This document shows positions 1,749 through 62,413 of a stretch of 64,000 nt of DNA, piece by piece (within the stretch, counting starts at the first letter, position 1; each line of letters starts with the position of its first letter). Made by a program: the position numbers and the translations under genes. The stretch covers positions 48,345 to 112,344 of IMG/VR virus record IMGVR_UViG_3300013121_000037; one strand, 5' to 3'. Source of the stretch: a virus. Taxonomy: Duplodnaviria; Caudoviricetes. A model generated the notes under the pieces. That model made no database searches, was not told where the DNA came from, and worked only from the letters and a program-made list of their open reading frames with translations.

Positions 1749-1883
1749 GTTTCACTCCTCCACTGATCAAAATGCGACAGTCTAGTTTTGCGCAGTTGAC
1801 TGTATCAGGGTGTTTCCATTAGGGGTCAAATCGCACCTGAAACAGGTCCGCTGCGCAAAACTAGACTGTTGCATTTTGACCAG

Positions 1884-2762
1884 TTACACCTTGACCCGCA
1901 GCAAATCCACCGCCCAGCAACCTCTGACGTGCGGACCGGCATCACCACCACAACGCGGGCAACCACCGATCACTTCCACGCTTCCGGTATACTCATCCAT
2001 GCCAACCCCAGTGTTGCCACAAGTCTCGCAATTTGCTCGACGGCGTAGGTGCCGCAGTATCCTGTCCTCGCCGCACCCCGCTTCTTCCAGGGCGTCGGCA
2101 ATGATGGCCAGTCGTGCCGGATCCAGTTCGCCCGTCTCCAGAGTGCCGGTGCCGTGGCAGTGCGGGCACGAATCTGCCCCCAACCCGGAAGCACAATTGC
2201 AACCGGTTTTATGCGACAGTCCCTTGCACCTATGTGGATAGGTGCATCTTCGCTGGTATGCCTCCTCGGCCAGGCGTGGGATGGTACCGTCGTTCCAGGT
2301 GAGCCAGACGTGGTTGACGGTGAGCGGGCGGAAAGGATTGCCGATGATGTCCCGGAGGAGGTTGGCTTGCGTGGCAGGTAAAACGGTTGGTCCAAACACA
2401 GTGGAAAAGACGTTGTTATGATAAATCGTCTGTCGCAATGCAACAGCAATGTCTGGGCAGGTTGCACACCACACCCAACCGTCTTCCGCTCTGGCTTGCC
2501 TTCTGGCTGTTAGCAGGCCACTGTGTGATAAATACTGGTCCGCATCCGCAAATTGTTCCGCAATTTCCACTGCCTTCTGACTGTGCTCGTTAGCCAGCAG
2601 GTTCCAGACCTGGCGACAGACGGTACAGGCGAACAGACGCAATTTCCTGTTGTCACACCGCCACAAAGTGCGTTCCATATCCAGCGTGCAATCAGTCTGA
2701 TGCAGCAGCGTTTGCAGCATTTCCTGCGGGTCCGTGCTGGTTAACCACTCGGTTTCGGTCAT
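1884..2762 (-). CDS. Planctomycete-expanded MTETEWL family protein (often auto-annotated SMI1/KNR4) with Zn-ribbon inserts, paralogue 1
   Basis: MTETEWL, RKLRLFAC, LLRDIIGNPFRP, IIADALEEAGC and GPHVRGCWAVDLL blocks; several CxxC motifs. Confidence 0.75.
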   Translation of the reverse strand: MTETEWLTSTDPQEMLQTLLHQTDCTLDMERTLWRCDNRKLRLFACTVCRQVWNLLANEHSQKAVEIAEQFADADQYLSHSGLLTARRQARAEDGWVWCATCPDIAVALRQTIYHNNVFSTVFGPTVLPATQANLLRDIIGNPFRPLTVNHVWLTWNDGTIPRLAEEAYQRRCTYPHRCKGLSHKTGCNCASGLGADSCPHCHGTGTLETGELDPARLAIIADALEEAGCGEDRILRHLRRRANCETCGNTGVGMDEYTGSVEVIGGCPRCGGDAGPHVRGCWAVDLLRVKV

Positions 2763-2820
2763 CGCTGACTTCTCCACTGCGCAAACGTAGACTGTCGAGT
2801 TTTGCACACCTCTCACCAAT

Positions 2821-4524
2821 CTAGCGACGATGCAAGCCCCAACTGCGCCGGTCCTGTTGCAGTGGCCGATAGGAGGATTGCTCGCTGCTCCGCTGCGGTG
2901 GTTTATCCTCGGCATGGGGTGTCATGTTCCGCCGCGGCGTATCCACCCCTGAAGGCACTCCCATGCTAAATCCTTCCGCGTAGGCCAAGTTCAGCGCGTC
3001 CATATCATCGGGACTGCGGCCAATCTTGTCCTTGGTGTCCCGCTTGGGTTCCACCACCCGTCGCCCCTGACTGTCCAGCCAGTATTCCGGAGCCAGTGCC
3101 TGCTGCTTCAGTTTCTGCCGCAGCAATGGGTCCAGACGTACCAGCGACAATTCACCCCGCTTCGCTCTTTCAGCAACCGTAAACCATAATTCATCGCGTC
3201 GCCGTGGATAATCACTCGGTTTGTGCGGACTGGAGCCAGCATTGATCGGGATAACCCGGTAACCGGCCTCACGCAGGCCATCCACCACGCCACCGCCAAC
3301 ACCATCATCATCCACCTTGATCGGCACCTGTTTGGAAATTACCGTTTTCTGACACCACTGCTGACTGGCCTTTTCTGCCCATTCCGTGGCCAGTTGTTTT
3401 AACCGGCCAATCGTGTGACTGGTATCCCGCTTGTTGAAGGACTCGTGTAGCAAACTGGTGCCACCCACCCGAACATGGATCGCCGTCCAGTCATCACCGA
3501 ACCGGGCCACATCACAACCAATCTCGGGAACAGCATCCGCTGGCATGGGTAACACGTTCAATTCCACCGCCCCCCAGAGATTATCAGACCAGATTCCATA
3601 GGTTCCCGCAGAGGGCCAGCGCCCCAGACCGCGGGCCTCAAAGATCGGTCCGGGTCTGTACCAGCGCCCGGGCTTGCCAGTGATTGCGCTGGGTGGCCAC
3701 TCAAAATCCGTGGCGGTGACTTGCTCAGGCGAGAGCGGTTCGCACCAGTCGGCTATCCAGACCTCCACCTGATCTAGCGTCACCGCCGCCGGAATCGGTG
3801 GCTCGCGGCCCTGCACCTGAGCAATGATGTTGGGATGCTCGAGCGCCGACACCTCAAACCGGTGCCAGGCCGCTGTGCTGCTGGTGTCCTCCAGATACGC
3901 CCGACTGGTCGTATCGGTGGGATTGCAAATAGCGAGCCAGAACATGAAGGGCCGCGGTTTCCACATGGTAGCCGTGGTCGTCCAGTAGGTCGCATCCACA
4001 CCGCACGCCTCATCGAATACCACCAGCATGCGCTCCGGATGCCGCCCCTGAAAACTCTCCCCTTTGGCTGCCGTGTACCCCTTGGCATAATGCTCCTGTG
4101 AGGAGGACATTTCCGGCGCCTTGGGCAGCAGGCCACCAAGTCCCACCCGCTCCCGCTGACTGCGCACCTGTGCCCAGAGCAGATCCACCACATCACGCTT
4201 GATCGGTGCCGTGGTGATGGCCAACCCCGGATCGAAGGAGTCGTAAAACCAGTTGACCAGCACAGCGGCGAGATGGGTTTTGCCTACCGAGTGGGCCGAT
4301 TTCACCAGCGTGCGATAGGGCGGGCGCAGCAGCGAACCCGCTATTTCCCGCTGCCGCTCCCACAGGTCGATTTCCAGGATGTTTCTGGCATAGGCAACCG
4401 GGTCAGTCGGGTAGGCATTGACCGGCAGACCCCGGTAATTGGTCACCTGGGGTTGGCCTCGGTTCTCCCGCAGGAGCAGTAGTTTGTCCACCTCCTGCAT
4501 CTTGCGCTGCAATATGTCTGCCAT
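2821..4524 (-). CDS. terL: terminase large subunit
   Basis: Walker A SAHSVGKT, Walker B VVFDEA, ICNP motif, nuclease motifs IGCDVARFGDD and SPDDMDAL. Confidence 0.9.
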   Translation of the reverse strand: MADILQRKMQEVDKLLLLRENRGQPQVTNYRGLPVNAYPTDPVAYARNILEIDLWERQREIAGSLLRPPYRTLVKSAHSVGKTHLAAVLVNWFYDSFDPGLAITTAPIKRDVVDLLWAQVRSQRERVGLGGLLPKAPEMSSSQEHYAKGYTAAKGESFQGRHPERMLVVFDEACGVDATYWTTTATMWKPRPFMFWLAICNPTDTTSRAYLEDTSSTAAWHRFEVSALEHPNIIAQVQGREPPIPAAVTLDQVEVWIADWCEPLSPEQVTATDFEWPPSAITGKPGRWYRPGPIFEARGLGRWPSAGTYGIWSDNLWGAVELNVLPMPADAVPEIGCDVARFGDDWTAIHVRVGGTSLLHESFNKRDTSHTIGRLKQLATEWAEKASQQWCQKTVISKQVPIKVDDDGVGGGVVDGLREAGYRVIPINAGSSPHKPSDYPRRRDELWFTVAERAKRGELSLVRLDPLLRQKLKQQALAPEYWLDSQGRRVVEPKRDTKDKIGRSPDDMDALNLAYAEGFSMGVPSGVDTPRRNMTPHAEDKPPQRSSEQSSYRPLQQDRRSWGLHRR

Positions 4525-4903
4525 GTTCCGGTGTCTTCTCGCTCGCCTTCAGGCGGCGCTCCAGTTCATCCACCCGTGCCATCAGATGCAGAACTTCCGT
4601 GGTCTTGATCCCCTGGTCCAGGATGGCCTTTGCTGCCACATTGGCCACACTGGGAAACTCGGAATCCAGGTTGTTATCCAGGGTCCGCACCGCCTTGCTC
4701 ATCCGCGCCGCCAGTTGTCCGGCGGCCCGGTTGACCAAGTTATCCCGCTGCCGCACCACCTCCTTGCGAAAGTCTTCTTCCAGCAGGCGCTTGTGTACAG
4801 TGCGCGCTGATACCCCCACCTTCTCGGCTGCCTTCTTGACGGTCAACCCCGAGGCCAGCAACAAGGCCAACTGCTGGTTTACCTGTCGGCGTGGTTTAGC
4901 CAT
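4403..4903 (-). CDS. HTH protein, probable terminase small subunit
   Basis: N-terminal HTH (TVKKAAEKVGVSARTVHKRL); directly upstream of terL. Confidence 0.6.
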   Translation of the reverse strand: MAKPRRQVNQQLALLLASGLTVKKAAEKVGVSARTVHKRLLEEDFRKEVVRQRDNLVNRAAGQLAARMSKAVRTLDNNLDSEFPSVANVAAKAILDQGIKTTEVLHLMARVDELERRLKASEKTPEHGRHIAAQDAGGGQTTAPAGEPRPTPGDQLPGSAGQCLPD

Positions 4904-5037
4904 AATGCGCAGCAAAGAGAAACGGCGTGAATTTGTGGTTATTCATCACCCGCCTGTCCCATGATGAATACTGGCCATTTTACCAACTGGTGCTTGCCAT
5001 GTCACACCGCACAAACTGCTGCGCAAAATGCTACTGT

Positions 5038-5775
5038 CTACTTTTGCGCAGTGGTTGGTTTATCCTGTCGGCACTGCGCACAGCAGACGTGGTCACCGAA
5101 TACCAGATCGGCGCGGGGATAGTCCGCCCCACAATAACAGCAGTGTTCAATCTGCCCGTCCAGTCGCCAGAGTGCTGCCGCCACCCATTCCGGTGTGCGT
5201 CGGGAGCGGGACTCTGGCGAGAAACCGTACCACGTTTCCAGGTACATTTCGCACTGCCGCCGCAACTGACCGATTTCGTCCAGGGTCAGTTGATGCAGAT
5301 TCACTGTTGCTGGAGAACACGCTGGAGTGGGTTGCTGGCGACCGCGGTCTTCAGGTGGGCGTTTGCTACCCGGTGGGTTGCGCCGGCCAAAGTCACCTTC
5401 GCTGCCATCGGTCTGCCAGGACTCGTGGTAGTAGGGTAAATCCGGGTCTGGCATCATCAGGAGTCGCACAGGTGGCGTCCCCAGGATGGCCAGGTAACCA
5501 GCATGGTCATCAATCAGGATGTCGATATGGTGCTCCTGGCAGACCACCGCCTTGCAGCGTTCGCCATGAGTTTCGTAGTCGGCACAGATGACTTGCTGGG
5601 GCGGAACAGCAAACCCGTTATCGTGGCAGAAAGTGGTGGCTTTCTGGTGTGGCTTCATGTCGCTGATAACGAACACCTCGAGCTCAGAGGAAAGCAGCAG
5701 GACTTGCACCAGCGGTCGGAAGATGTCCGGGTATTTGGACAGGCACCCGCCAATGTCGAAAGCAATCCGGGTCAT
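5038..5775 (-). CDS. HAD-superfamily phosphatase-like protein
   Basis: IAFDIGGCL and ILIDD motifs; stop codon lies inside a 35-bp palindrome (TAQK*). Confidence 0.6.
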   Translation of the reverse strand: MTRIAFDIGGCLSKYPDIFRPLVQVLLLSSELEVFVISDMKPHQKATTFCHDNGFAVPPQQVICADYETHGERCKAVVCQEHHIDILIDDHAGYLAILGTPPVRLLMMPDPDLPYYHESWQTDGSEGDFGRRNPPGSKRPPEDRGRQQPTPACSPATVNLHQLTLDEIGQLRRQCEMYLETWYGFSPESRSRRTPEWVAAALWRLDGQIEHCCYCGADYPRADLVFGDHVCCAQCRQDKPTTAQK

Positions 5776-5843
5776 CTGGTTTTCCTCTTCCTGCGTGCTG
5801 CGCAAAAGTAGACTGTTGAGTTTTGACCAGTGGGTGGTATCAC

Positions 5844-6242
5844 TTAGGACCGCACCACATACGCTTCCAGACGAATCAGGTCCGGGCGCTGCTCGGACAG
5901 ATACATGCGCAGCGGTGACACCTGCTCACCTGCCTGGAGTTGTCCCACCTTCTCCCGTAACTGGAGCGTGGCCTGCCGGAATGCGGGCAGCGTGTCGTCG
6001 GCGTTGGGCGGGTCACGGAACTCCACCACCACGCAGCGCACCACCTGACCACTTAGAATGGCTCTCTGCACCGTGGTTTCTTTGGCCAGCGGTTGTGGCC
6101 AGAGAAGATCCCAGATGACATCCAGTTCACCGAACACCGGCACCCCGGACCAGACCACCCGCTCCGTGCTGCTGCTGACAGTAGGTAATACCAGAGCGGT
6201 TGCTGCCGCGGCGGTCAAGGTGCAAAACTCACGACGATTCAT
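5844..6242 (-). CDS. hypothetical protein with twin-arginine-like leader
   Basis: MNRREFCTLTAAAATALV. Confidence 0.5.
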   Translation of the reverse strand: MNRREFCTLTAAAATALVLPTVSSSTERVVWSGVPVFGELDVIWDLLWPQPLAKETTVQRAILSGQVVRCVVVEFRDPPNADDTLPAFRQATLQLREKVGQLQAGEQVSPLRMYLSEQRPDLIRLEAYVVRS

Positions 6243-6898
6243 GTTAGGCTCCTGTCGATGGGGTTGGCGGAGTTGGTGGAAAGTGCTGCAGCCAGTTGGG
6301 GTGCGTACGCGGCGGCCAGGGTGGCAATGGTGTTGACGTTGATGGCAAAGGCGATGTTCTCGGCACTGTCGCGGACTGCCACGTTCAGGCCAATCAGTTG
6401 CCCCTCGCTGTTGAGCAACGGACCACCCGAATTGCCCGGATTGATGCTGGCGTCGTGCTGAATCAGATCGTCCAGTACCGACCCCGTTGGCATGGTGATA
6501 CGCCGCCCCAGTGCCGAGATGATGCCAGCGGTGACCGTGTTGGCATACCCCAGCGGCGACCCAATGGCCACCACGGTTTCCCCCACCAGCAGATCCGGAA
6601 CCGGATGGATTTCCAGACAGGGCAGTGGTGTGGCATGATTGACCCGCACCACCGCCAGGTCATGCTCCTCACTGCGGTTCAGCACCAGGCCGGGCAAGCG
6701 CTCCCCCGTGGCCAGCACCACCTCCACATCGTCAAAAGTACCAACCACATGACGATTGGTCAGGATGATGCCGCTTGGCGAGACAATGGCACCCGAACCA
6801 ATGGAGGGACGCGAATCCGCCCGCGTGTACACGTTGATCGTCACCACAGCCGGTAACACTTTTTCCACCACCTCGACAATGACACTGCGCCGACTCAT
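6239..6898 (-). CDS. trypsin-like (HtrA/DegP-type) serine protease lacking a PDZ domain
   Basis: Catalytic-triad motifs ILTNRHVV, DLAVV and INPGNSGGPL. Confidence 0.9.
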   Translation of the reverse strand: MSRRSVIVEVVEKVLPAVVTINVYTRADSRPSIGSGAIVSPSGIILTNRHVVGTFDDVEVVLATGERLPGLVLNRSEEHDLAVVRVNHATPLPCLEIHPVPDLLVGETVVAIGSPLGYANTVTAGIISALGRRITMPTGSVLDDLIQHDASINPGNSGGPLLNSEGQLIGLNVAVRDSAENIAFAINVNTIATLAAAYAPQLAAALSTNSANPIDRSLT

Positions 6899-6920
6899 GA
6901 CGAAATTCCTCTCTGGATAG

Positions 6921-7214
6921 TCAGGATAAATCGCGCCGGGCATCCTGGGGATGGTGCAGTTCCTGGCACTGCGCCGCCCGCTGCTGCAAAACCTGCCAGT
7001 ATTCCGTGGTCCCGGGCAAATGTTGGGTCGGTTCCGGTTTGCTGGCCACGACATTGTCAAGCCCTGCCCCTCGCATGTTGCTCCGGCAAACCAGATGGCC
7101 AAACCGTGTCAGTACCGCAGGATCGTGATAACAGGTCCAGCACAATTGCCGGGGCCGATTGGCCACCTTCTGCTGACAGTTCCGGCACTGCGGTTTCACT
7201 GCGGACAACTCCAT
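6921..7214 (-). CDS. small Zn-finger protein (C-terminus similar to 32367..32762)
   Basis: CRNC...LCWTC; PTQHLPGT...LHHPQD versus PTSALPGS...LWDDRD. Confidence 0.5.
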   Translation of the reverse strand: MELSAVKPQCRNCQQKVANRPRQLCWTCYHDPAVLTRFGHLVCRSNMRGAGLDNVVASKPEPTQHLPGTTEYWQVLQQRAAQCQELHHPQDARRDLS

Positions 7215-7248
7215 TTTGAAAAACGTCGGCACCAGGCACCCAGTACAA

Positions 7249-7515
7249 CTATTTATGGCGGATTTCCTGCAAAATTCGGTTGGCAATCCATCCCAAAGAT
7301 TTGAACAGTTTGCTCCGGTCGCCGTACAGGTCTGGATAAAGCACCGTATGAGCGAGGTAGGTGCTGGCACATACCTCGCAAAACCAGAAATCATCATGGT
7401 TTCCTTCTGCCCAGCGCTCCGTCCCCTCACCGCGATAGTTTTTCAGCGGGATGCCGCGAAAACCACAGCACTCACATTCTCCTGGTGACTCTGTAGTTTG
7501 TTCCTGCTCACCCAT
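7249..7515 (-). CDS. hypothetical Cys-rich protein
   Basis: RBS immediately after a palindrome; CECC and CEVC. Confidence 0.45.
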   Translation of the reverse strand: MGEQEQTTESPGECECCGFRGIPLKNYRGEGTERWAEGNHDDFWFCEVCASTYLAHTVLYPDLYGDRSKLFKSLGWIANRILQEIRHK

Positions 7516-7581
7516 GACAAAAACTCCTCTCCACCATTCACTGCGCAAAAGTAGACAGTTGCATTTTGCGCAGTGAGCAGG

Positions 7582-8712
7582 CTACACCGGGGTTTCCTTG
7601 ACCACGATTGGCACCAGCACATAGCGATAATGGTCCGCCGTGGTCAGCAAGGATGGCGAGGTTGCATCCTGCAAGTGCCAGGTCACCTCCTCGTCAGTCG
7701 GCAGCACCTTGAGAAAGTCCAGCACCGCCTGCGGCGCCAGGTAAATGGTGAGGGCCGGTCCCGTGAACGCGATGGGAATGGCCACCTTGGCCCGCCCCGT
7801 TTGCGGTCCCTGTGCCGACAGGGTCAACCTCCCATCCGTGAAGGCAAACTGCACCCGCCGCGTTTGCTCATCCGTCATCGTCGCCGCCTGCCGTACCGCC
7901 GTCAACAATACCCCAACCCGTACTTTGGCCGTGGCCACACAATCCTTGCTGGCTGGAATCACCGCCTGCCAGTTTGGAAAACGTCCCTCCACCAGCCGGC
8001 TATACAATAATCCCCGCTCACTCTGCACCAGTATCTCATTGGCGCGCAGCGTTACCATGATCCGCTCGTCCGGGTCGGTCAGCAGCCGTGCCAGCAGCAC
8101 CAGTGCCTTTTCTGGCACCACCGGTTGCCCCTGCGGTGGCGCAGTGCCATTGGTTTCTACCTCCTGCTCCGTCACCGCCAACCGCCGTCCATCCGTGGCC
8201 ACCAGATGCAGCGCCGTCCCCCGCACATCCCAGAGAATGCCCCGGGTTGCCGTGTAACGGGCATTCTCCTCTGCCACCGCGAACAGTGTCCTGGTAATGA
8301 ATTTCTGCACGTCACTGGCCAGCAAAGAATACCCAACCAGGCCACTGACCACCGGCATATCTGGGAAAATGCTGGGGTCTTCCCCCGGCAATTCAAACTC
8401 CGTGCTGTCAGTAACAATGGTCGTCGTGGTGTTGTCCGAGGTGATGGTCAAACTATCGTCGGGCAACTCCCCCAAAATCGCAGTCAGTTTGGCCGCAGGC
8501 CACAGCGCCGCTCCCGCCTCCAGCACCGCCACCGAACGCAGGTCCAACCGTAGACCAATCTCGGTATCCGTGCCCTGCACCGTGATACCGTTGTCCGTGG
8601 TGGACACCTGGAAATTCGCCAGCACCGGCATGACCTGCTTGCCCGTGGGAATTACTCCCAGTATGGTCTTGCACAGTGCCAGTAGTCCCTGCCGATGTAC
8701 CGTGATCTTCAT
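7582..8712 (-). CDS. dnaN: DNA polymerase III beta sliding clamp
   Basis: 376 aa; GTDTEI, VATDGRRLA and SRLVEGRFPNWQAVIP signatures. Confidence 0.92.
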   Translation of the reverse strand: MKITVHRQGLLALCKTILGVIPTGKQVMPVLANFQVSTTDNGITVQGTDTEIGLRLDLRSVAVLEAGAALWPAAKLTAILGELPDDSLTITSDNTTTTIVTDSTEFELPGEDPSIFPDMPVVSGLVGYSLLASDVQKFITRTLFAVAEENARYTATRGILWDVRGTALHLVATDGRRLAVTEQEVETNGTAPPQGQPVVPEKALVLLARLLTDPDERIMVTLRANEILVQSERGLLYSRLVEGRFPNWQAVIPASKDCVATAKVRVGVLLTAVRQAATMTDEQTRRVQFAFTDGRLTLSAQGPQTGRAKVAIPIAFTGPALTIYLAPQAVLDFLKVLPTDEEVTWHLQDATSPSLLTTADHYRYVLVPIVVKETPV

Positions 8713-9494
8713 GATAATTCCTTGCCGGTTTTGAGTCGTTCCAGGTCGCGTTCCGCCCGCAAGAGTGTGTCCACCCAGGGTTCGCCTGGCTGCTGCTCGG
8801 CCAGGTCGTGGTGCCAGACCGAACCACCATAGCCGTAGTCGAGTACAAAACTCCAGCGCAGAGTATGACTGGACAGGTGCAACCGCACCGCCACGATTTG
8901 CCGCGCCCGCCGGTGAGATTGGTTGAGTTGCACCGCCAGTTTTCCCTGCGCTTTCAGGAGGGATGTCAGTCGCTGTTCAATGACAGCCTGACTCCAGGGA
9001 GCATCCTGGTAACCGTAATGCGGAAACCAGATACGCTGCTGGCCACCCACCCGGATGTCGAACGCCTCCCGCCAGGCGTCCACCGAGTCGTTGCCAATGT
9101 CCAAAAGGGCGTAGTGAAAACGCCGCTTCAGGTCGCCCAGACTGACCACGGGCCGAATGCTGGTCATGCCAGTGCAGGTGGGTTGGCACGATAACAGCGC
9201 CTTGACAGCGTGGGCCACCCAGGGTTGCCGCTGGCGCTCGGGCGTGTCCAGTTCCTGGGCCGAGCGCACCATCCAGGCCAGCACCCCAAGTGCCTGCTCA
9301 ACGCTGTAGGGATAGGGCCAGTAGCAACCAGGGCGCACCAGTTCCACGAAGTGACAGGTAACACAGCGTTTGAGTTTGCTGAGCGCTGGCATCACTCCAT
9401 CCTCTCTGCCAACCGGGTACACTCGGGTTGCGACCAGGCCACCCGCCAACCAAATAGAGACTTTGCATGCTGCCTTCCTGATAGCACATGCCAT
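8709..9494 (-). CDS. hypothetical protein
   Basis: Long ORF whose stop overlaps the dnaN start (ATGA). Confidence 0.5.
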   Translation of the reverse strand: MACAIRKAACKVSIWLAGGLVATRVYPVGREDGVMPALSKLKRCVTCHFVELVRPGCYWPYPYSVEQALGVLAWMVRSAQELDTPERQRQPWVAHAVKALLSCQPTCTGMTSIRPVVSLGDLKRRFHYALLDIGNDSVDAWREAFDIRVGGQQRIWFPHYGYQDAPWSQAVIEQRLTSLLKAQGKLAVQLNQSHRRARQIVAVRLHLSSHTLRWSFVLDYGYGGSVWHHDLAEQQPGEPWVDTLLRAERDLERLKTGKELS

Positions 9495-9578
9495 ACCACC
9501 ACCACAGCATTTCCCAGAGGAGAGTGCTAAATCCAGAAGTGCTCACTGCGCAAAATGCAACTGTCTACTTTTGCCCAC

Positions 9579-9980
9579 TCACTCAGCACCCTGCAACTCC
9601 AGCAGGCGCAGCACTCCCGCCGAATCCAGGTGCTGTTCCAGCAGGAAAATCACCTCTGGCAATTCCTGCTGCGGCACCAGTCGCAACACCTGCGCCGCCA
9701 CTTCTGCCGGACTGCCCACCAGCACACCAGTTGCCTCTCTGCCGCCGAGCAGCGGCGCAGGTGACTTCTGGACCACTGCTACCTCTTTCGCTGGCAGATG
9801 GGCATCCCGCAGCGCCAGGAACTCTGCAATTGCCTCTGCACTGACTACCTTGCCCAGCAAACACCGCCGCCATCCCGACTGCAATGGCCAGGACACCCCA
9901 AGCACTTCCAGCTGCTGCCGGTTCCAACCACCATTCCGACTCATCCCCTCTTCCAGCAACTCCCGCGTTACCACTGGCAT
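9579..9980 (-). CDS. hypothetical protein
   Basis: Bounded on both sides by palindromes 9545 and 9992. Confidence 0.55.
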   Translation of the reverse strand: MPVVTRELLEEGMSRNGGWNRQQLEVLGVSWPLQSGWRRCLLGKVVSAEAIAEFLALRDAHLPAKEVAVVQKSPAPLLGGREATGVLVGSPAEVAAQVLRLVPQQELPEVIFLLEQHLDSAGVLRLLELQGAE

Positions 9981-10619
9981 ACCAGCACCTCACTGGGCAA
10001 AAGTAGACAGTTGCATTTTGCGCGATTTGTGGAAATTTTCGATGAAATTTGTGCGGATTTCCGTGCGCACTTCTAGCGCTAGCTATTTCTTTGTCTTCTG
10101 GTCTGAGAAGACCTGTCGTGTTATCTAGCACATCATGTACCACTGAGAAGAGTAGTGGTCTGCTCCCAAAATCCTTCGGGTTCGCAGGCGGGCGCACCGA
10201 CCCCGTGCGGAGTCGGTGCAAGTGGTCAAAATCCCCCTGGGACGGCAGTTCGGTTCGACCTTCCGGGGACCGGTTGGGGTTGCCAACCATGTGCCAGGAC
10301 AGTGCTGCCTGGCGTGGTTTTTTAACGCTGTTCACCCGGAATTCGCACCCGTCACAGCGTCCATCGTGAGCGTTTGTCAGACCGTTTCGGCAGGCACATC
10401 TGACCGATGGAATACGAACAACCTTGACCCTTGGCGCTGTACTTGTTTGGACTTCACCAGTCCCTTTGCCTCGGCTGTCGGTGGGTCAGATACCGTTTCC
10501 CAAATGGTGGGTGTCGTTTTGACTTCAGCAGTATCCCGCACCCGGCAACAGGCTTTTGGGATGTGCTGGTGGTCAAAATGCGACTGTCGCATTTTGACCA
10601 CTGGTTAGTCGTGGCCAGA

Positions 10620-10710
10620 AACAAAATCAGCCATTGTTTCCAGCAGTGTGACCTGCGAGTCCACCCTCACGACAGAGGTGATTCGCAACTGCTGGAAACA
10701 ATGGCTGAGA
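10620..10710 (-). ncRNA. putative small structured RNA or leader
   Basis: Perfect 21-bp inverted repeat 10627-10647/10688-10708, followed on the minus strand by TTTTGTTT; lies just downstream of a promoter. Confidence 0.45.
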
Positions 10711-10714
10711 GTGT

Positions 10715-10743
10715 ATTCTCAGTGTCGTGATGCTGCTTTTCAA
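10715..10743 (-). promoter_or_regulatory. sigma70-like promoter
   Basis: TTGAAA-17 bp-GAGAAT. Confidence 0.5.
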
Positions 10744-10764
10744 GTGCCGGTCAATAGCACAGAA

Positions 10765-11511
10765 TCAGAATTTACCCGAAGCGTCATCCCCGTGCAACCG
10801 ACGCTGCTCTACAAAATCGATAATTTCTTTGGGCACGAACATGCCGGGCATGTAGTTGGTGCCCTGGTAACGAAACGGCAGCAGGACGCGGGTAACACCG
10901 TTCTCGGTGCGCAGGCAGCGTGCGGTTGGTTCGCGGCGCTCCAGTTCTGCCAGCACTGCCGCTGCCTGCCGGTGACTGTACCCGGTCGCAATGGCCTCGG
11001 AGATACCATACTGCAACAGGCGTTTCAGTTGCATATCGCTGACACGCTCCCGCGGCGAAAAGGTAAACGGTTCATCCGCCTTCAGTTCTACAGGATTTCC
11101 GGATAACTCAGCAACGAGTTCCGCCAGGTTGCTGTTCTTTTCCTGTCGGACAGTGTTGAGCAACTCTTCCGTCAACTCATACGCCCGCTTCTCTGTCAGG
11201 TTGGTGGCAGTAACCCCCAATTGTTTCAGCAACTCCATCTGCCACTTCAGTGCTGGTCGCTGGTCGCTCAGGCCGACTGCAACCGGTTCCGGTTTCTTAC
11301 CGAAACTGACCACATGCGGCACTGCCACGGTTTTCTCGGGTGCTGGTTTCAGCCAGGTCGTTGCCAGTACACTGTCCAGCAGTTCGCCGTTGCGGCCATG
11401 CCAGAGACAGCGGCAGGTTGGTCCGTCCCGGTGAACTTCGGCCACCGTCATCCGGGGACCGCCGGACTTCAGTTGTACCACGTCACCCACCGCGAATTTC
11501 ACTTCAGCCAT
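10765..11511 (-). CDS. YodC/DUF2158-domain fusion protein
   Basis: KFAVGDVVQLKSGGPRMTV N-terminus. Confidence 0.7.
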   Translation of the reverse strand: MAEVKFAVGDVVQLKSGGPRMTVAEVHRDGPTCRCLWHGRNGELLDSVLATTWLKPAPEKTVAVPHVVSFGKKPEPVAVGLSDQRPALKWQMELLKQLGVTATNLTEKRAYELTEELLNTVRQEKNSNLAELVAELSGNPVELKADEPFTFSPRERVSDMQLKRLLQYGISEAIATGYSHRQAAAVLAELERREPTARCLRTENGVTRVLLPFRYQGTNYMPGMFVPKEIIDFVEQRRLHGDDASGKF

Positions 11512-11619
11512 CGACTCACCTCGCTTCTGCTGCGCAAAACTCGACTGTCTACTTTTGCCCACCTTGATCAGGAATGCGATTCACTGCTGCGCAAAATGCA
11601 ACTGTCTACTTTTGCGCAG

Positions 11620-12359: not shown

Positions 12360-12361
12360 GG

Positions 12362-13071: not shown

Positions 13072-13167
13072 AGGTTGCCTCCATTAGCACAAGTGGTCTT
13101 CCAACCGCGACACATCACGCTGCAAGGCTGCGCATTGTCGCTCCAGTTCCTGCACCCGCTGTTGGCT

Positions 13168-14151: not shown

Positions 14152-14203
14152 GTCACCTCCGCGTACCAGTCGTAGTCAGCCGTGAAGCACATGGTTACTC
14201 TCC

Positions 14204-15448: not shown

Positions 15449-15469
15449 TTCGCACCTCCACGATCATAG

Positions 15470-18370: not shown

Positions 18371-18375
18371 TGCTT

Positions 18376-52668: not shown

Positions 52669-52741
52669 GTGGTCAGCGTGCAACGGCGGTCACTGCGCAA
52701 AATGTGACTGTCTACTTTTGCGCAGTGACTGCGGTTGCCGG

Positions 52742-54401: not shown

Positions 54402-54456
54402 GATATTTGTCCTCTCTATCTCACTGCGCAAAATGCGACAGTTTACTTTTGACCAG

Positions 54457-56325
54457 TTACTTCGCCTGCGCCTTGAGGTTGGCCAGATTCCTGGCGGCGC
54501 GGTGCATGGCAAAAGGATACGCTAATTCCCAGTCCTGCCGCAGCACACTGATACCCCGCACCAGTGCCCACAGACGAATATCTTCCGGGATCACCACCCG
54601 GCCAATCTCGTGAATCGGCACCGCTGCCTTCGGGTCCGGTTGCAGCAGAAACGCCAGCACCTTCGGCGCCAACTTATCATCCATGACCTTCACCCCCATC
54701 TCAAACAGCGCCTGCCGCGCATCCACCTTGCGATACCAGTAATCGCGGTAGATGCTCACTTCCTTGCCCACCGCTTCCCGGGCCAGATCCGTGGGTTTTA
54801 TCTGGTTGTCCAACCAGGGACCGGTCGCCCTATGCACCGCCTTTGTGTAATCCAACCGCCCTCGACTGAACGCGGCATCCGGGTCGCCCCCATAAAGACC
54901 CGCCAACCGGCGAATCACATCCAGGTTGTTTTGTGCAAAACGGCCATGCTCTGACAGGTCGGCCAGAATGTCGAGCGACTGCCCCGGACCTACCAACTTC
55001 TGCACATCGTTGCCCGTGGCAATCCAGCCATTGTGCGCTCCCTTGAAATGACACGCCTTGCAGGAACTGGTTTGCAACCGGCGCGTATAAGGTTCCGGAA
55101 TCGTGTGGTCGTTGGCCACATCCGGCGGCACTTCCCGCTGCCGTTTCCCCGCATCATCAAACAGGTCGTAGGCATGCAGACCATTGGGCAATTCATAAAT
55201 AACCTCCCGCGCCCGATCCTTCGGCGTCAGCAGGTTCATCAGGGCATGCCGGTCCACATCCACATCCTGGTCCTTCAGGTCATGGGTGATGGACAGTAGT
55301 CGGGTAGTGTTGGAGACATGCCCGGTCAGAGTGGGTAGGATTTCAATGAGGCGTGACTTGCCCGTGACCTGACTCTGGAAAATGGCGCTGCGCTGGTCCG
55401 GCCTGGTTCGCTCATAAATTTTCCGGGCACTCCCGGCACTGCCATCCCCCACCCCTAACTTCTCAAACAGAGCATCCTCATCACTACCGCCATTCTTGCC
55501 CTGCGGCACGCTCAAAAGTTCGAAGTACAAACCACCCCAGATTTCCTTGAAAACGCCAGTATCCTTCTGTTTGTCCACAATCCCATCCTGGATGCTGCTG
55601 GCCGTGCGATAGGACCAGTACGGTTGACTGACCACCGGCGCCGCACTTTTCGTGCGCTGACAGAGTTCGTGATAAACCTCCGGGTCCAGCAAGGGCGATG
55701 GCAGGCGAATGAACTCCACCGCCTTCAGGTCGCCCACCTTGATTTTCTTGGGATAACAGATCCGCTGCTTCTCCCACCGTTTGCTGTAAGTTTTGCCATC
55801 CGCTGGATGCACATACTCGGGACAGTCCACCAGTTGCTTTTCCCAGTGGTAGACGTGGGCCAAAACCTCAAAGTGGCCAAAGGCGCGAATGGCAGCCTGC
55901 AAGGTGCCCGGTGTCAAGAGTAGCGAGAATTTAGGGTCGTTCCTGAACTCCTCCCATAGCGTGGCCAGTATGGAAAAGTCGCTGCCGGGTGGTAGATAGT
56001 GGCGCAGGTCCAACCGGGCCAGCAGAACCTCACCCACCCGCACACCGGCAGGACGCTGGATTTCCACACCCCACGACACCCCATTGATGGTCAGGGAAGT
56101 GGCCAGAAACGCCGGGATCGTCTTTTCCACAATCCAGATGTACCGATAATAACACTGCTCATGCTCGGGAATCTTGCGCAGATCCAGCAGCGCCACCGCC
56201 TGCGCCTGTGCCGGTGTGGCCACCAGACGAATAGGTAACTCCTGCTGGTCAGTTTGCTTCGGTTGTGCCTGTAGCAGCGGAACCAGTCCCCACAACAACA
56301 GCACCACCACCCCTGCGCTTCGCAT
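54457..56325 (-). CDS. secreted Planctomycete-type CxxCH protein
   Basis: Signal peptide; VPPDVAND...SCKACH. Confidence 0.6.
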   Translation of the reverse strand: MRSAGVVVLLLWGLVPLLQAQPKQTDQQELPIRLVATPAQAQAVALLDLRKIPEHEQCYYRYIWIVEKTIPAFLATSLTINGVSWGVEIQRPAGVRVGEVLLARLDLRHYLPPGSDFSILATLWEEFRNDPKFSLLLTPGTLQAAIRAFGHFEVLAHVYHWEKQLVDCPEYVHPADGKTYSKRWEKQRICYPKKIKVGDLKAVEFIRLPSPLLDPEVYHELCQRTKSAAPVVSQPYWSYRTASSIQDGIVDKQKDTGVFKEIWGGLYFELLSVPQGKNGGSDEDALFEKLGVGDGSAGSARKIYERTRPDQRSAIFQSQVTGKSRLIEILPTLTGHVSNTTRLLSITHDLKDQDVDVDRHALMNLLTPKDRAREVIYELPNGLHAYDLFDDAGKRQREVPPDVANDHTIPEPYTRRLQTSSCKACHFKGAHNGWIATGNDVQKLVGPGQSLDILADLSEHGRFAQNNLDVIRRLAGLYGGDPDAAFSRGRLDYTKAVHRATGPWLDNQIKPTDLAREAVGKEVSIYRDYWYRKVDARQALFEMGVKVMDDKLAPKVLAFLLQPDPKAAVPIHEIGRVVIPEDIRLWALVRGISVLRQDWELAYPFAMHRAARNLANLKAQAK

Positions 56326-56481
56326 ACCACATCCTGATCAACCACCAACCCGGCAACAACACCCAGTTCACCACCACCCAGATATGCCAGAGCAGATGCA
56401 CCAACAACAAGGTCAACAGATGTTCCAGCATGCTCCCACAACCACTACTGCGCAAAATCTTCTTCACAAAACAGTTTACTT

Positions 56482-56955
56482 TTACCCACCTTGCAGTTCT
56501 TTGAGCACTTCCACCTTGCCCAGTGCCTTGTCCAGCGCCGTGTTCAGCGGTTGATACTGCCATCTGACCCGGTGCCGATAGATGGCCCGCAGCAACATCT
56601 CCTGCAACAGTTGCCGGTTGAGCACCGGTTTGGCCACATACTCCTGTGCCCCGGCCTCCAGCACCTCCTCCAGCGTTACCGTGCTATCCCCAGTCATCAC
56701 CACCACCGGCACCTGCGGACAGCAGGTTTGCAGCAATCGCATGGTTTCCAGCGAGTCCTGCGATAGCGGTGAATCGGGCAGGAGTAAATCCAGCAGCACC
56801 ACATCGGTGGAGTGCTGGCACAAATACTCCTTGCCCGCGGTCAAGGAGTCCGTCACCGTGGTTTCAAAGAGGTCGCTGCTATCCAGCAATTTGGGCAGTA
56901 ATTCTTGCAGGTCTGTAGAATCTTCAATCAGCAATACCCGCCACTTTTGACTCAT
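56482..56955 (-). CDS. single-domain response regulator (REC)
   Basis: VLLIED, VLLDLLLPD, VVMTG, GAQEYVAKP. Confidence 0.88.
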   Translation of the reverse strand: MSQKWRVLLIEDSTDLQELLPKLLDSSDLFETTVTDSLTAGKEYLCQHSTDVVLLDLLLPDSPLSQDSLETMRLLQTCCPQVPVVVMTGDSTVTLEEVLEAGAQEYVAKPVLNRQLLQEMLLRAIYRHRVRWQYQPLNTALDKALGKVEVLKELQGG

Positions 56956-57362: not shown

Positions 57363-57460
57363 CACTGTCCCCCCTCCTGTGCCTGATTGTGCTATAGCCA
57401 AGCATCCGCACACAACAGGAGACAGTTTCTGACGGCGGGCACTGCGCAAAATGCAACTGT

Positions 57461-58651
57461 CTACTTTTGCGCAGTTGACTGGCCAGCGGGGTGATCCACA
57501 ATCCAGCAGCGTTCCCATTGCCGCCACTTACCCCGAAATTCTTTTTCCACCGCGCGGCGAACCCCCTCGCGATCCACGTCATGACCAGCCATGACACCTG
57601 CTGTCTTGAGTTTCGGTCGCCAGGCGCGAATGTCCGCCAAACACCCTTCGTAGGAGTGGTCACCGTCCACAAAGACAAAGTCACAGGAGTTGTCCGCGAA
57701 AGCCTGCGCTGCCGCCACACTCGGCTTCTGAAGGGGGTGAATGTGATCAGTCACGCCGCAGTGAATCATGTTCTGCCAAAAGGTCGGGAACATATCACCA
57801 CCGAGTTTTTTCACCTCACCCTGGTGTTCATGTCCCTCTGTACCCTTCCAGGTATCCACCGCGTAGAACGTGACCGGTTTCAATCGTCGCTTGATCTCCG
57901 TCCCCATGTACGCAGCACTGCGGCCTCGCCAGCAGCCAATCTCCACAAACACCGCCGGACCACGTACCCTGCCCAGTGCCTCATCGTACAGGGTCCGCAT
58001 CTGTTCATCGAACCATCCCGCAATTCCCTTCCAATCGGTGTTGGAAAGCGCTGCTGAAGGTGACTGATCCTGCAACACCAGCGGTGGAACAAAGGAATAA
58101 TGCCGCAGGTGCGGATAGACCAGATGGGCAGCCAGAATATCCGAATGCGTGGAAAATGACGCTTTGCGTAATTGAGCCAGAGCAAAACGCAGCGCTGACT
58201 TTTTCCACAGCACCGCATGACAGCACAGCGGTTCGCGAATCTCCCTGACCCGTTCATTGACCAGAAGCGTTTTCTTGTCCTCCGTGCAGCAGTGCCCCAC
58301 ATGGACCACGTCCCAGTCCAGCGGCAAGGCCGCATAGGAACGGGCAAACTCCTCCCGGAAGTGGGGCACAAACACCACATCATCCTCAAATATCAACACC
58401 TCGTCCTCCGGTCGTTCACAGCAAACGGTCCAGAGGAACATTTTCGATAAAGTCAGGGCCACTTTACCAGAGGTGATGTAGTGCTGCGGACTGTCGAAAT
58501 GGGCCAGTCCCGGTTTGATGGCCGCAGTCGGGCCGTGAATCCCATCAAACAGTTCCACCTCCAACCCGGCAGCGGCAAACCGCTCAATGGCCAGGTCGCG
58601 GCGTGCTGCCAGTTGGTGGCAGGTAATGGCGTACATTTTTGGTAGATTCAT
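57461..58651 (-). CDS. GT25-like glycosyltransferase fused to a class I SAM methyltransferase
   Basis: LIFEDDV; VEIGCWRGRS, AVDTW, FVDGDHSYE, AGHD. Confidence 0.8.
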   Translation of the reverse strand: MNLPKMYAITCHQLAARRDLAIERFAAAGLEVELFDGIHGPTAAIKPGLAHFDSPQHYITSGKVALTLSKMFLWTVCCERPEDEVLIFEDDVVFVPHFREEFARSYAALPLDWDVVHVGHCCTEDKKTLLVNERVREIREPLCCHAVLWKKSALRFALAQLRKASFSTHSDILAAHLVYPHLRHYSFVPPLVLQDQSPSAALSNTDWKGIAGWFDEQMRTLYDEALGRVRGPAVFVEIGCWRGRSAAYMGTEIKRRLKPVTFYAVDTWKGTEGHEHQGEVKKLGGDMFPTFWQNMIHCGVTDHIHPLQKPSVAAAQAFADNSCDFVFVDGDHSYEGCLADIRAWRPKLKTAGVMAGHDVDREGVRRAVEKEFRGKWRQWERCWIVDHPAGQSTAQK

Positions 58652-59823: not shown

Positions 59824-60103
59824 GGGACACGTCCCTCCCAGAGCACCTTGCCATCACGATAACGCACCACCTGCCGGTGCCAGTCCGGCAGGTAGTAAAT
59901 AACCACCGGGTAATCCTCCAGTGCCACACCAGTCGGTAGCCAACTGCTGTTCTTCCAGACCTGGGGAGAATCGCAGTACATGGCGTTACGAGTGCCAAAC
60001 CAGACCAGTGGCGGGCGTGCCGGTTCACGCTGTTGCCCCAGCAAGCAGCAAAACAAACCCAGTACCAGCAACAGTATTACCAGCAACAAACGGTGCCAGA
60101 AAA

Positions 60104-62314
60104 TCAAGGTGGTGTCTCCGTGATGACCAAACTGAACGCGCCAGGGCAATTGTTGGTGCTGGTCAAACTTTGGCTCAACTGGAACGGGTCGCAACTGTCA
60201 GCCGTCAAGCCAGCAGGCGAGCCATAGATTACCGCTGGACCAGCCGCTGAGACTTGCCAGCCAGGACTTGGCCTGGTGTGGTCGCTGCATTCCAGCAGTG
60301 CATATTGCGTGCCTACAGTGCTACATACCCCCTCTGGATGTACTGCTCGCCAACCGTGAACTCCCGGTGACGTTTCCCCCTGATACTCAAATACCAGCGT
60401 CCCAAACGACGCCAGGGCACCGTCGTAAGTGCCGTACAGCGTGACAGGAACTGTCACACCCGGACAGCATTCAGTTTCTACACCACCACCGCCACTGCCA
60501 CTGCCACTGCCAGCACCTTCATCGCTACCGCTATCGCCACCGCTGCCACTTCCCTCCCCACTACCACTTTCGCTGCCGCTACCACTGCCCGAACACGCCC
60601 CCGTATCCTCCACGCAACTGCCGCATGCCGTTGTACCCTTCACCACCCACTTGCCCAATGTGGGCGAGTACACCAGCGTGATGGAACCGCCCGGACAGAC
60701 AGTGATGTCCCCACCGGGAAAACTGATCTGGTTCGCGCTGGCGGCACTGCCACACTCCGGTGAAATCACCAGGCAGTAATCCCCGGTGACAATGATGGTC
60801 ACTTCCTGTGCGTAACCCCCACCTGGAGCAGCCAGTCCGCATAGAGTCTGGCAGCCACCCGTCACGTTGATGGTCAGCACATTGGTGGTGACCGTATAAT
60901 TGTTGATGGTGTAATTGACGGTGATGTATGTTTCGGAGATGTACTGATTGGTGACGTAATTGTTCGTGACGTAGTTGTTTTCGACCGTCAGATTGTTGGT
61001 CACCTCGATGTTGGTGACAATGATCTGCGTCACGTCCAGATTGGTAATCCAGACCGTGGTACCATCGGTCAGGATGCCCGCACAGCATTCCTCCGGACCC
61101 GGCGAACCGGAGGCCACACCCTCCTCCACAGGCGGGAATTCCAGCCTGCAACAATCGTTCCAGGGTGGCCGTTGGACCCGGGTCCAGCACTCGGTATCGG
61201 TGTGACACCACAGGATATGGTCCGACAGTCCCTCCGGAGTGTAGTTGCGCAGACCAGCATACTCCTGATCCTGCCGCCCCAGTTGCCAGAGATACCAGTC
61301 GCTGGCCAGCTGTGCGGCCAGTGTCTGCAATTCGTCCTGATTGGTCGGTCCGGCACCAGCCACAAATGCTGCTGGAGTCAGACAGTACAGCAGTTGCACA
61401 TTGCCATTACCAGTGACCCCCTGATACTGCGGCAAGGCCAGTGACTGCAAGGACACTGCCACCGGATAGCGCTGCTCGGAATTGAACCCGTCATCTTCCC
61501 GGGCAAACACCACCTTCACCGTACCCGGCGCCACCCCCAGCAAATCATGCCGCGCCGACCCCAGAGTCCGGTCCAGCGCGAACAACCCGCCCGCATGCCG
61601 GGCAAACGCTGCCAGTTGCTGATTGTGCAGCACCAGCGCACTGGCCGGTGCCTGCGCCGTCACCACCCCCGCCAGCGAACGCACAATCCTGCGACCCGTA
61701 GCATACGCCACCGCATCCAGCAGCGGTGGCAAATACTCGTACTGCGCCGCAAAATCCGCCGTGGGTTTTAGATAGGCACTCTCCACCGCGTCCACACTGA
61801 GGGAGATTCCCAACCCGCTGGCAATGCTGGCATACAGTTGCGCCCAGGTCGTGCTGCCCTCCGTCACACTGATGGCCGCCGCCCGCTGCCACCAGAAATA
61901 TCTCTCATCCACCAACGTCAGTAGATGAAGTTGTTCCTGTCCAGCAATCTGGGCCAGAGGCCGTGGGGGCAGCATGAAGAGACTGGTTTGCACCACCCCG
62001 CCCGCGCCGTCATCCATCTTCAGCGTCAGCGCGTTGTAGGTGCCACCCAGATAAGCCAGCGCACGAATGCTGGTCAGTTCAGTCGAAGTGCAGAGGAAAT
62101 GCCCAACGGCCCAGCGCGAGGCCCCCGTGGGCCAGTAGAGATGACCAATCTGAATGGGACGGGTGGGAATGCGCTGGTGCTGCTGCCCCGTGCGTGAGGA
62201 TGGCCAGAAGGGTTGCGCCATCTCCACCACATCACTGGTGCTAATGGTGCTCTCTATCCAGTGAACCACCTCGGGATTCACCGCCGCCAGGGCAATACCG
62301 CCATAGGTCAGCAT
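60104..62314 (-). CDS. putative virion/tail structural protein
   Basis: 736 aa; T/N/V-rich beta-repeat stretch, GS linker and Cys-rich tail. Confidence 0.5.
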   Translation of the reverse strand: MLTYGGIALAAVNPEVVHWIESTISTSDVVEMAQPFWPSSRTGQQHQRIPTRPIQIGHLYWPTGASRWAVGHFLCTSTELTSIRALAYLGGTYNALTLKMDDGAGGVVQTSLFMLPPRPLAQIAGQEQLHLLTLVDERYFWWQRAAAISVTEGSTTWAQLYASIASGLGISLSVDAVESAYLKPTADFAAQYEYLPPLLDAVAYATGRRIVRSLAGVVTAQAPASALVLHNQQLAAFARHAGGLFALDRTLGSARHDLLGVAPGTVKVVFAREDDGFNSEQRYPVAVSLQSLALPQYQGVTGNGNVQLLYCLTPAAFVAGAGPTNQDELQTLAAQLASDWYLWQLGRQDQEYAGLRNYTPEGLSDHILWCHTDTECWTRVQRPPWNDCCRLEFPPVEEGVASGSPGPEECCAGILTDGTTVWITNLDVTQIIVTNIEVTNNLTVENNYVTNNYVTNQYISETYITVNYTINNYTVTTNVLTINVTGGCQTLCGLAAPGGGYAQEVTIIVTGDYCLVISPECGSAASANQISFPGGDITVCPGGSITLVYSPTLGKWVVKGTTACGSCVEDTGACSGSGSGSESGSGEGSGSGGDSGSDEGAGSGSGSGGGGVETECCPGVTVPVTLYGTYDGALASFGTLVFEYQGETSPGVHGWRAVHPEGVCSTVGTQYALLECSDHTRPSPGWQVSAAGPAVIYGSPAGLTADSCDPFQLSQSLTSTNNCPGAFSLVITETPP

Positions 62315-62413
62315 GCCCCGACAGTAAAAGAAACCGCCATCTCAGAACAACTGCGCAAAAGTAGACAGTCGCATTTTGCGCAGTTGTCCTGAGATAAACA
62401 GTATCCCCTCACC

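Follow-up and report, generated by a model that had tools for sequence, protein, structure and literature searches.

In the DNA of an uncultured phage of the class Caudoviricetes, a single 35-bp palindrome is repeated about sixty times, for the most part between genes and hard against the stop codons that precede it. The stretch analysed here (the window) is 64,000 nucleotides long and corresponds to bases 48345-112344 of the 112,344-b IMG/VR virus record IMGVR_UViG_3300013121_000037; coordinates labelled 'genome' are those of the record, which has a G+C content of 58%, is estimated to be 79% complete and belongs to a phage of ~140 kb. The element is real and strongly non-random. We tentatively propose that it is a double-stranded DNA (dsDNA) site for a phage-encoded, two-fold symmetric binding protein, which would block or insulate transcription in the manner of the stoperators of mycobacteriophages, the likeliest of the readings weighed here, though one that we consider possible rather than probable.

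The full 35-bp unit reads ACTGCG-CAAAA-N4-ACWGT-N4-TTTTG-CGCAGT. Its core, CAAAA-N4-ACWGT-N4-TTTTG, is matched exactly at 31 places in the window and at none in 100 dinucleotide-preserving shuffles. Allowing up to two mismatches gives 34 copies which, together with a degenerate copy at 47102 and a 44-bp variant at 56447, make up the 36 copies spanning 1762 to 62384 that had been claimed in an earlier reading of the bare sequence (the original prediction); a match with three mismatches at 58489 was not counted. In the whole record, the exact core occurs 51 times and a reversed control pattern not at all. Fifty-six copies there have two mismatches or fewer, and a profile search of the kind that had been proposed for the full genome recovers four more (a degenerate copy, a copy carrying a 7-bp insertion and a couple of 44-bp long variants), bringing the total to ~60.

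In the 33 full-length 35-bp window copies that were aligned, T3, G4, C7, A8-A10, A16, C17, T25-T28, G29 and C32 are invariant and the 13-bp centre never changes length, so that the near-invariance of CAAAA/TTTTG and of the centre, and the fixed 13-bp spacing, hold as first described. The remaining positions draw on a restricted vocabulary: ACTGCG, GCTGCG, GGTGGG and ACTGGT in the outer arms, and GTAG, CTAG, TGCG, CTCG, TGCA, TGTA, TGCT and GTAA in the N4 blocks, the commonest form (oriented by its central base) being ACTGT flanked by TGCR on one side and CTAC on the other. Linkage holds among the letters of one arm (p<0.0005) but not between the left and the right arm (p 0.2-0.3), and the N4 blocks of a copy show an association, namely a preference for being different from each other (p 0.0005). 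The two 44-bp long variants (window 56447; genome 5547) share the same 9-bp insertion, and their flanks are unrelated; decayed copies are very few. Both of the close pairs reported originally, 1762/1850 and 11529/11586, are present, the former being an inverted doublet inside a 128-bp imperfect palindrome.

A gene model based on codon usage called 158 genes, 136 of them on the minus strand, and classed 87% of the record as coding. Against that background 44 of 56 copy centres are intergenic (p 2e-28), which bears out the predicted location at gene boundaries. At co-directional junctions the copies keep close to the gene just ended: in 31 of 37 cases the preceding stop is nearer than the following start (p 4e-5). 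The median distances are 5.5 nt from stop to element and 27 nt from element to next start, and where a spacer is longer it lies on the downstream side. Contact with the stop is frequently direct: at least 13 copies supply or abut the stop of the upstream gene, the element's first A is used by eight stops, TAG within GTAG ends five genes, and 14 of 34 copies overlap a stop codon. Copies also occur at three of the eight called convergent junctions and four of the eight divergent ones, and both orientations are found among genes of one transcription direction (36:20). A possible switch of orientation at ~32 kb was not used, as the best split reached p 0.005 before correction for ~46 cut points and GC skew takes no turn there.

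Mean spacing across the ~60 copies is 1.85 kb, in agreement with the ~1.8 kb first estimated, and the gaps are markedly regular: their coefficient of variation is 0.63, compared with 0.98 when positions are random and 1.02 when gene junctions are drawn at random (P ~1e-4 or less), and the largest is 5.4 kb where 8.6-10.1 kb would be expected. Five of the copies fall within real proteins, two in a 2295-aa polyvalent protein and one each in a portal fusion, a 647-aa protein (a degenerate copy) and a 650-aa primase-like protein. The element is translated in one and the same frame in all five, where it yields the hydrophilic peptide [VL][GR]K[ST][RK]QS.F[AD]Q and sits in flexible linkers. In the portal fusion, homology to other portals stops near residue 467 and the copy occupies residues 524-536, after the portal domain; the same HAP(K/R)GG module comes after the copy in both the polyvalent and the portal proteins; and homologues of the 650-aa protein align as a single unit across the site, where the copy falls in a linker of variable length. 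Across genome 32576-44513, the polyvalent protein (with ADP-ribosyltransferase and NUDIX domains), the 647-aa protein and the portal-ADP-ribosyltransferase protein share HAP(K/R)GG modules split by in-frame copies. Without the in-protein copies, the structural region would hold the two largest gaps of the genome, of 7.6 and 6.4 kb. Because spacing is even and copies within open reading frames (ORFs) fill what would otherwise be gaps, the distribution points to selection for coverage of the genome. Even spacing, stop-codon polarity, in-frame copies, the independent mixing of arm haplotypes and copying between sites all go beyond what had originally been noticed.

What the copies preserve is sequence. 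Some 20 positions are invariant over 112 half-sites, with the left and right arms varying independently. Hairpin pairing is present in 75.8% of cells compared with 80.6% in shuffles, and all 500 shuffles equal or exceed the observed value, as they do for the covariation score, so the maintained hairpin that typifies repetitive extragenic palindromic (REP) and REPIN sequences is not seen here. As RNA, the 35-mers are predicted to fold with energies between -2.3 and -25.4 kcal/mol (median minimum free energy -12.5 kcal/mol), and about one-third of the copies fold more weakly than -8 kcal/mol yet retain every invariant letter. Because pairing falls below that of all 500 shuffles and hairpin energies are so widely spread, hairpin structure is not the conserved feature; sequence is conserved, half-site by half-site. 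The N4 blocks, which according to the original prediction need not be complementary, are together with the centre less self-complementary than chance, and the centre looks as if it were kept from pairing, as though formation of a hairpin or cruciform were avoided. Strict invariance beside free assortment cannot stem from structure alone, and thus a sequence-specific reader is needed. The lack of arm covariation, the breadth of hairpin energies and the constancy of ~20 positions likewise support the earlier preference for a dimeric protein reading dsDNA over an RNA hairpin. Features of RNA-level signals were also sought. No U-tract follows any copy, the T-run lying inside the stem; a terminator scan of window 1-20000 flagged no element and returned terminator-like sites at chance level (18 vs 17); and most copies offer at most 11 contiguous arm pairs around a 13-nt unpaired centre, where RNase III of the T7 type would call for a double-stranded stem of ~20 bp.

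The element is private to this phage in the three collections scanned. One genome from each of 185,579 species gave only six unrelated, terminator-like single matches to the exact pattern, IMG/VR gave three chance single matches and the JGI metagenomes 41 unrelated single matches; scans of IMG/VR for a relative's version of the element (below) or for its generic architecture gave none, and a search of IMG/VR for loci related by terminase returned nothing. No public sequencing runs are listed as containing DNA of this phage. A host REP element is ruled out by the species-genome scan, and the original prediction's own caveat, an abundant host REP-like repeat devoid of positional bias, is at odds both with the absence of any multi-copy match and with the strong bias in placement. 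Nor is the element a CRISPR repeat, as judged by the absence of an Rfam match on the window and of arrays in the species-genome scan.

A closer relative is known only from short Logan contigs in two runs of one study (SRR21707666 and SRR21707647), its terminase being 84%, its helicase 71% and its clamp 62% identical to the proteins of this phage. In all three of the orthologues that can be checked (terminase, L063; helicase, L064; clamp, L066) a palindrome lies just past the stop. It reads ACTGCT-CAYCG-N4-AC-N-GT-N4-CGRTG-AGCAGT, with two central bases in one copy and, relative to the CAAAA arms, a change of three letters in each inner arm and one in each outer arm, in every copy. Sites have been kept while their consensus shifted together, as happens to stoperators, albeit in a small sample of three genes; such concerted change requires selection or homogenisation and not neutral decay. 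The gene that follows the clamp differs between the two phages, being in the relative a member of a paralogue family (family B) described below, and because of this the conserved unit is 'gene plus element'. More distant relatives (L017-L020 and L065; terminase or helicase 42-54% identical) have abutting genes and no dispersed repeat. The repeat found in L017 is a CRISPR array and not a dispersed element: at L017:2962-6200, on the contig with the 54% identical terminase, 14 repeats adjoin the gene for a 684-aa protein with a weak Cas12f/TnpB-type TNB domain, and the locus looks like a phage-borne compact CRISPR-Cas system.

It is from the sites, their invariance, placement and even spacing, the want of covariation and the relative's altered version that we infer binding, a type of binder and an effect on transcription. 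A symmetric reader of dsDNA fits best: it would explain why the half-sites are independent, why orientation does not matter, why hairpins are weak and the centre does not pair, and why copies are found in promoter cassettes. Such a binder could be a simple dimer, or each subunit of the dimer could carry two DNA-binding domains, in which case four reading heads would be spread over the 35 bp. Occupied sites, presumably in the prophage, would block or insulate transcription crossing the ends of genes. Of the roles originally suggested, stoperator-like silencing fits best and, by analogy with known systems, it would match the even coverage, a density of one site per ~1.9 kb, a temperate gene set, the privacy of the element and its concerted change in the relative.

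The phage looks temperate because its sequence includes a tyrosine integrase with a partial tRNA, and a repressor-like protein. The partial tRNA (window 44103-44155, minus strand; Rfam 30.8 bits, with ARAGORN finding no whole gene) lies ~120 nt from the integrase gene (42967-43980) and is probably the attP core, which could name the host. Three divergent regions (window 46650-46950; genome 7700-7960 and 18990-19290) are paralogous cassettes and probably the switch regions of the phage. In each of them a box with an 18-bp palindrome, CTGT-N8-ACAG, directly abuts a copy of the element (genome 7858 and 19155; window 46770), and the copy directly follows a -10-like box, such that a transcript started there would begin inside the element, within its left arm; bound sites would cover the region of transcription start. 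The cassettes also share a ATATTTAAC motif and a GCGAATAA-type motif, and the CTGT-N8-ACAG palindrome is LexA-box-like. A repressor-like protein of 185 aa (genome 7930-8487), encoded 72 nt from a copy, has two Cro/C1-type helix-turn-helix (HTH) domains, and its nearest solved relative by sequence match is the controller protein C.AhdI. It is a candidate reader of the element, though only a lead. Weaker HTH candidates are encoded at window 38001-38423 and 41547-41834. As for the binders named in the original prediction, a 370-aa protein (window 30034-31146) does have a weak ParB-like N-terminal match (E 1e-4), which is under any curated threshold and is accompanied by no Pfam match in the same protein, whereas the LAGLIDADG-like protein was not recovered: PF00961 and PF14528 gave no match and no such motif is present among the called proteins.

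Several observations weigh against a stoperator-like dsDNA site. Only a candidate binder can be named; 35 bp is long for one dimer; and a homodimer leaves the preference of the two N4 blocks to differ unexplained. A roadblock needs no tight placement behind stops, yet copies overlap them, and the pull towards stop codons hints at a signal that marks where a unit ends, a pattern equally well explained at the level of RNA. In-frame linker copies are what would be expected of an invading palindromic element. Moreover, because the same 9-bp insertion recurs at unrelated loci and the haplotype vocabulary is small, the sites must have been copied from one another and have not arisen by point mutation.

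The polarity invites an alternative that we judge unlikely, in which an RNA (or single-stranded DNA) hairpin stands after each coding unit, its 11-bp stem and 13-nt loop with an ACWGU centre being read by a sequence-specific factor to bring about factor-dependent termination, to direct mRNA processing or to shield the 3' end of the preceding cistron. Proximity to the upstream stop, with the spare DNA downstream, is what such a signal would show; a palindrome would provide a near-identical stem and loop centre in both orientations; the median folding energy speaks in its favour; and in the relative a T-A pair of one copy is replaced by C-G in two others at the same arm position. Within the genome, however, covariation is absent and pairing lies under every shuffle, the weakly folding third of the copies has kept all its invariant letters, there is no U-tail or flagged terminator, and the stem is too short for RNase III. 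At the three promoter cassettes the transcript would start within the left arm, and a T7-type phage RNA polymerase was not found with the Pfam model, in a search without a working control.

Copying between sites could instead reflect a selfish miniature palindrome spread by insertion or gene conversion wherever 35 bp are tolerated, with any effects on the phage being secondary, an account that strikes us as rather improbable. The insertion common to the long variants, the small haplotype vocabulary, the copies that supply or abut upstream stops, the five linker copies confined to the one frame that yields a hydrophilic peptide, the REPIN-like inverted doublet and the abutting, repeat-free genes of more distant relatives all accord with invasion. 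Random insertion would not be expected to give even spacing and so short a largest gap, nor so few decayed copies, and in the relative (62-84% protein identity) the same three genes are each followed by the element, its copies there being altered alike. No host genome holds many copies. Machinery was also sought: in the 79%-complete record the Y1 (IS200-like) transposase model PF01797 had no match, while control genomes responded, so neither a Y1 nor a RAYT enzyme was found, and Pfam models detected no serine recombinase, rve or DDE_Tnp_1 transposase.

The record does hold two TnpB genes and no TnpA, and as mobilisers of the element the former were rejected, since the TnpB insertion has boundaries of its own and carries no copy. 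This TnpB-only insertion sequence (window 24546-25892; tnpB 24577-25707, minus strand) interrupts a DUF3310 gene, as is evident from L064, in which 10 nt separate the DUF3310 and helicase genes; the probable start of the helicase is near 24496, not 24574. The second, divergent TnpB-like gene (genome 44632-45717; L007:14632-15717) encodes 361 aa with OrfB_IS605 and Cas12f1-like TNB domains.

More doubtful is the idea that the copies are points at which cassettes of genes or domains are exchanged through short homology or a site-specific recombinase, so that 'gene plus 3' element' is swapped as a unit; we consider this quite unlikely. The arms assort independently, as they would in hybrid sites, placement after stops resembles that of integron attC sites, the relative's clamp keeps its element while the next gene differs, paralogue families A and B are mostly bracketed by elements, the portal-fusion and polyvalent copies fall at module boundaries in one frame before a HAP(K/R)GG module, and an Erf-like annealing protein is among the products of the phage. 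With sixty sites active in both orientations, however, the genome would be scrambled. The only tyrosine recombinase is integrase-like and adjoins the tRNA fragment, the RYYYAAC/GTTRRRY cores of attC are absent from the consensus, the 13-bp centre exceeds the crossover region standard for tyrosine recombinases, and the copy in the 650-aa primase-like protein lies within a single conserved protein and not at a gene boundary. A broader version, in which built-in, frame-compatible 35-bp junctions let related phages swap genes and modules of the giant injected effector proteins, in the way of integrons or VENN motifs, seems to us similarly far from probable, and any exchange of modules may be a by-product of the repeats and not what they are for. 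Finally, parS-like, packaging or genome-organising sites, at which a clamp or condensing protein would load in many places, are highly improbable: even spacing and the weak ParB-like match of the 370-aa protein are in keeping with them, but that match is below curated thresholds and unsupported by Pfam, nothing ties the sites to terminase, known parS and KorB sites are 13-16 bp long and far fewer, and this part of the original prediction gained no specific support.

The individual copies of the window are given here in order, each with an exact core unless stated otherwise. The inverted doublet opens with 1762-1796, the 128-bp imperfect palindrome spanning both members, and its partner at 1850-1884 abuts the stop of the family-B gene 1884-2762. 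Ten nucleotides past the stop of the large terminase lies 2776-2810 (one mismatch), the homologue of which follows the L063 terminase. The copy at 5018-5052 supplies the TAG stop of gene 5038-5775; directly downstream of it is the best sigma-70-like promoter match of the first 20 kb (4977-5005, minus strand, 10/12 with TG), followed by ~450 nt without a called gene up to the start of the terminase. Then come 5797-5831, between co-directional genes, and 7540-7574, which is 7 nt past the stop of the sliding clamp and has a complete homologous counterpart after the L066 clamp. Gene 9579-9980 is flanked on both sides, by 9545-9579 abutting its stop and by 9992-10026, 11 nt before its start. An almost fully symmetric copy at 10568-10602 overlaps a doubtful 74-aa ORF, and the close direct pair consists of 11529-11563 and 11586-11620, the second of which abuts the stop of gene 11620-11883.

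Six nucleotides past the ThyX stop is 17018-17052; 18442-18476 separates co-directional genes, 19419-19453 (two mismatches in the centre) lies inside a small ORF, and 21377-21411 supplies the stop of gene 21397-21912. The copy at 22744-22778 is 5 nt past the stop of the 596-aa helicase, as is a homologous palindrome after the L064 helicase; 26645-26679 abuts the stop of a DNA methylase, and 29062-29096 lies between a methylase gene and that of a 499-aa helicase. Two copies involve small ORFs, 32172-32206 overlapping the end of one and 34037-34071 lying inside another that is possibly spurious. The copies at 35834-35868 and 38823-38857 are intergenic, and between them 37101-37135 is 3 nt past a stop. 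Near the integrase gene, 42629-42663 has a TGTACACT box on its 5' side, and 44273-44307, close to the partial tRNA and the same gene, abuts a stop. A 34-bp copy whose T-run is one T short was recovered by mismatch search at 44970-45003.

The promoter/operator-like box at 46770-46784 (plus strand), in the window's representative of the three paralogous cassettes, abuts 46785-46819, the copy within that divergent regulatory cassette, and the degenerate copy found by profile and mismatch search occupies 47102-47136. Convergent gene junctions hold 47803-47837 and 52692-52726; 49711-49745 is intergenic and 51470-51504 lies in the divergent intergenic region upstream of an HNH gene. The copy at 54423-54457 abuts the stop of a 622-aa gene, the 44-bp long variant at 56447-56490 contains a second CAAAA and the 9-bp insertion seen at genome 5547, 57441-57475 supplies the stop of gene 57461-58651, and 62350-62384 separates a 736-aa gene from gene 62414-62812.

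Gene products recognised in the record as a whole are a large terminase, a sliding clamp, two helicases, ThyX, an Erf-like annealing protein, several DNA methylases, the tyrosine integrase encoded beside the partial tRNA, the two TnpB proteins, the 2295-aa polyvalent protein and the fusion of a Mu-type portal with an ADP-ribosyltransferase. It has no DNA match among cultured relatives, and its terminase is at most 30% identical to that of any cultured phage. The host is probably a planctomycete, because the closest cellular homologues of the clamp are from Gemmataceae. Two paralogue families of unassigned function, A with three genes and B with four (one having DnaJ-type zinc fingers), are located at window 1884-2762, 15798-16781 and 51784-52668 and at genome 3938-5530, 26624-27361 and 45958-46650. 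Their N-terminal motifs recall planctomycete and myxobacterial proteins and, with the Gemmataceae-like clamp, point to a planctomycete host. There was no support for either family being transposases, and Pfam models gave no match to a 229-aa gene. The ends of the record (genome 1-206 and 111768-111973, the latter being window 63424-63629) share a 206-bp direct repeat at 92% identity, which could be a diverged terminal repeat or the end of a paralogous gene. In the small-gene region upstream of the integrase, segments of ~100 bp and ~70 bp are repeated at 88% identity (window 39768-39942 and 41488-41833).

The reader protein is known for very few dispersed palindromic sites of phages, and this case is informative in that the site is long, evenly spaced and kept even as a translated linker, while the relative's altered version could expose a binder that has changed with it. 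Should the sites serve to silence a 140-kb prophage in a host of planctomycete type, control of the stoperator kind would reach far beyond the phages of actinobacteria; should they instead mark cassettes open to exchange, the assembly of polyvalent effector proteins would be explained.

The stoperators of Cluster A mycobacteriophages, bound by a repressor of the L5 gp71 type, number dozens of copies at ~1 per 2 kb and lie mostly in short intergenic spaces (PMC9283540, PMC6550527), and in these phages site and repressor co-evolve (PMC6550527). The present element is similarly dispersed over a temperate genome (~60 copies, 44/56 intergenic, with an integrase and a repressor-like gene), at ~1 per 2 kb, in short intergenic regions and also at promoters, and it is private to a lineage in which its copies change together. 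Stoperators are asymmetric sites of 13-14 bp that follow the direction of transcription and are recognised by a monomer, whereas the present element, 35 bp long and dyad-symmetric, is found in either orientation, abuts stops, is sometimes translated and has a putative binding function.

The conserved inverted repeats (CIRs) of Streptomyces phage phiC31 are palindromic sites for repressor c at promoters and gene ends, 17 bp long and in ~18 copies; they resemble the element in their genome-wide palindromic placement and differ from it in sequence, length and number. REP and REPIN sequences (with RAYT transposases) and the in-frame palindromic elements of Rickettsia are imperfect extragenic palindromes of 20-40 bp, and have in common with the element an inverted doublet, copying between sites and tolerated in-frame insertions in proteins; unlike REP/REPIN, the element has no Y1 transposase detected in the record and no cellular genome with multiple copies, its hairpin is not kept, its spacing is even and its carrier is a phage. 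Integron attC sites and the promoter-stem-loop cassettes (PeSLs) of T4-type phages are repeated post-stop elements bounding gene cassettes that differ between relatives. Here attC cores, an integron integrase and PeSL-type promoters are absent, and any exchange is putative. Controller proteins of the C.AhdI and C.Esp1396I type place four Cro/C1-type HTH domains, as a tetramer, over an operator of ~35 bp. The length is that of the element, and the candidate binder, with two HTH domains per chain, has C.AhdI as its nearest solved relative; C-protein operators are single-copy switches upstream of their own gene, unlike the ~60 dispersed copies of this phage.

The Cluster O mycobacteriophages carry more than 30 copies of a 17-bp dyad repeat of unknown function, for which a dimeric binder was predicted by the authors (PMC4351075). 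Those repeats, too, have invariant arms and a variable centre, and are dispersed, intergenic with some genic copies, and oriented independently of transcription (PMC4351075). They are unrelated in sequence and half as long, one-third of them lie in coding regions of phages that are not obviously temperate, and no frame rule, stop-codon polarity or even spacing is reported for them (PMC4351075). It is length, copy number, even spacing, the contribution of stop codons and in-frame use as protein linkers that distinguish the network described here.

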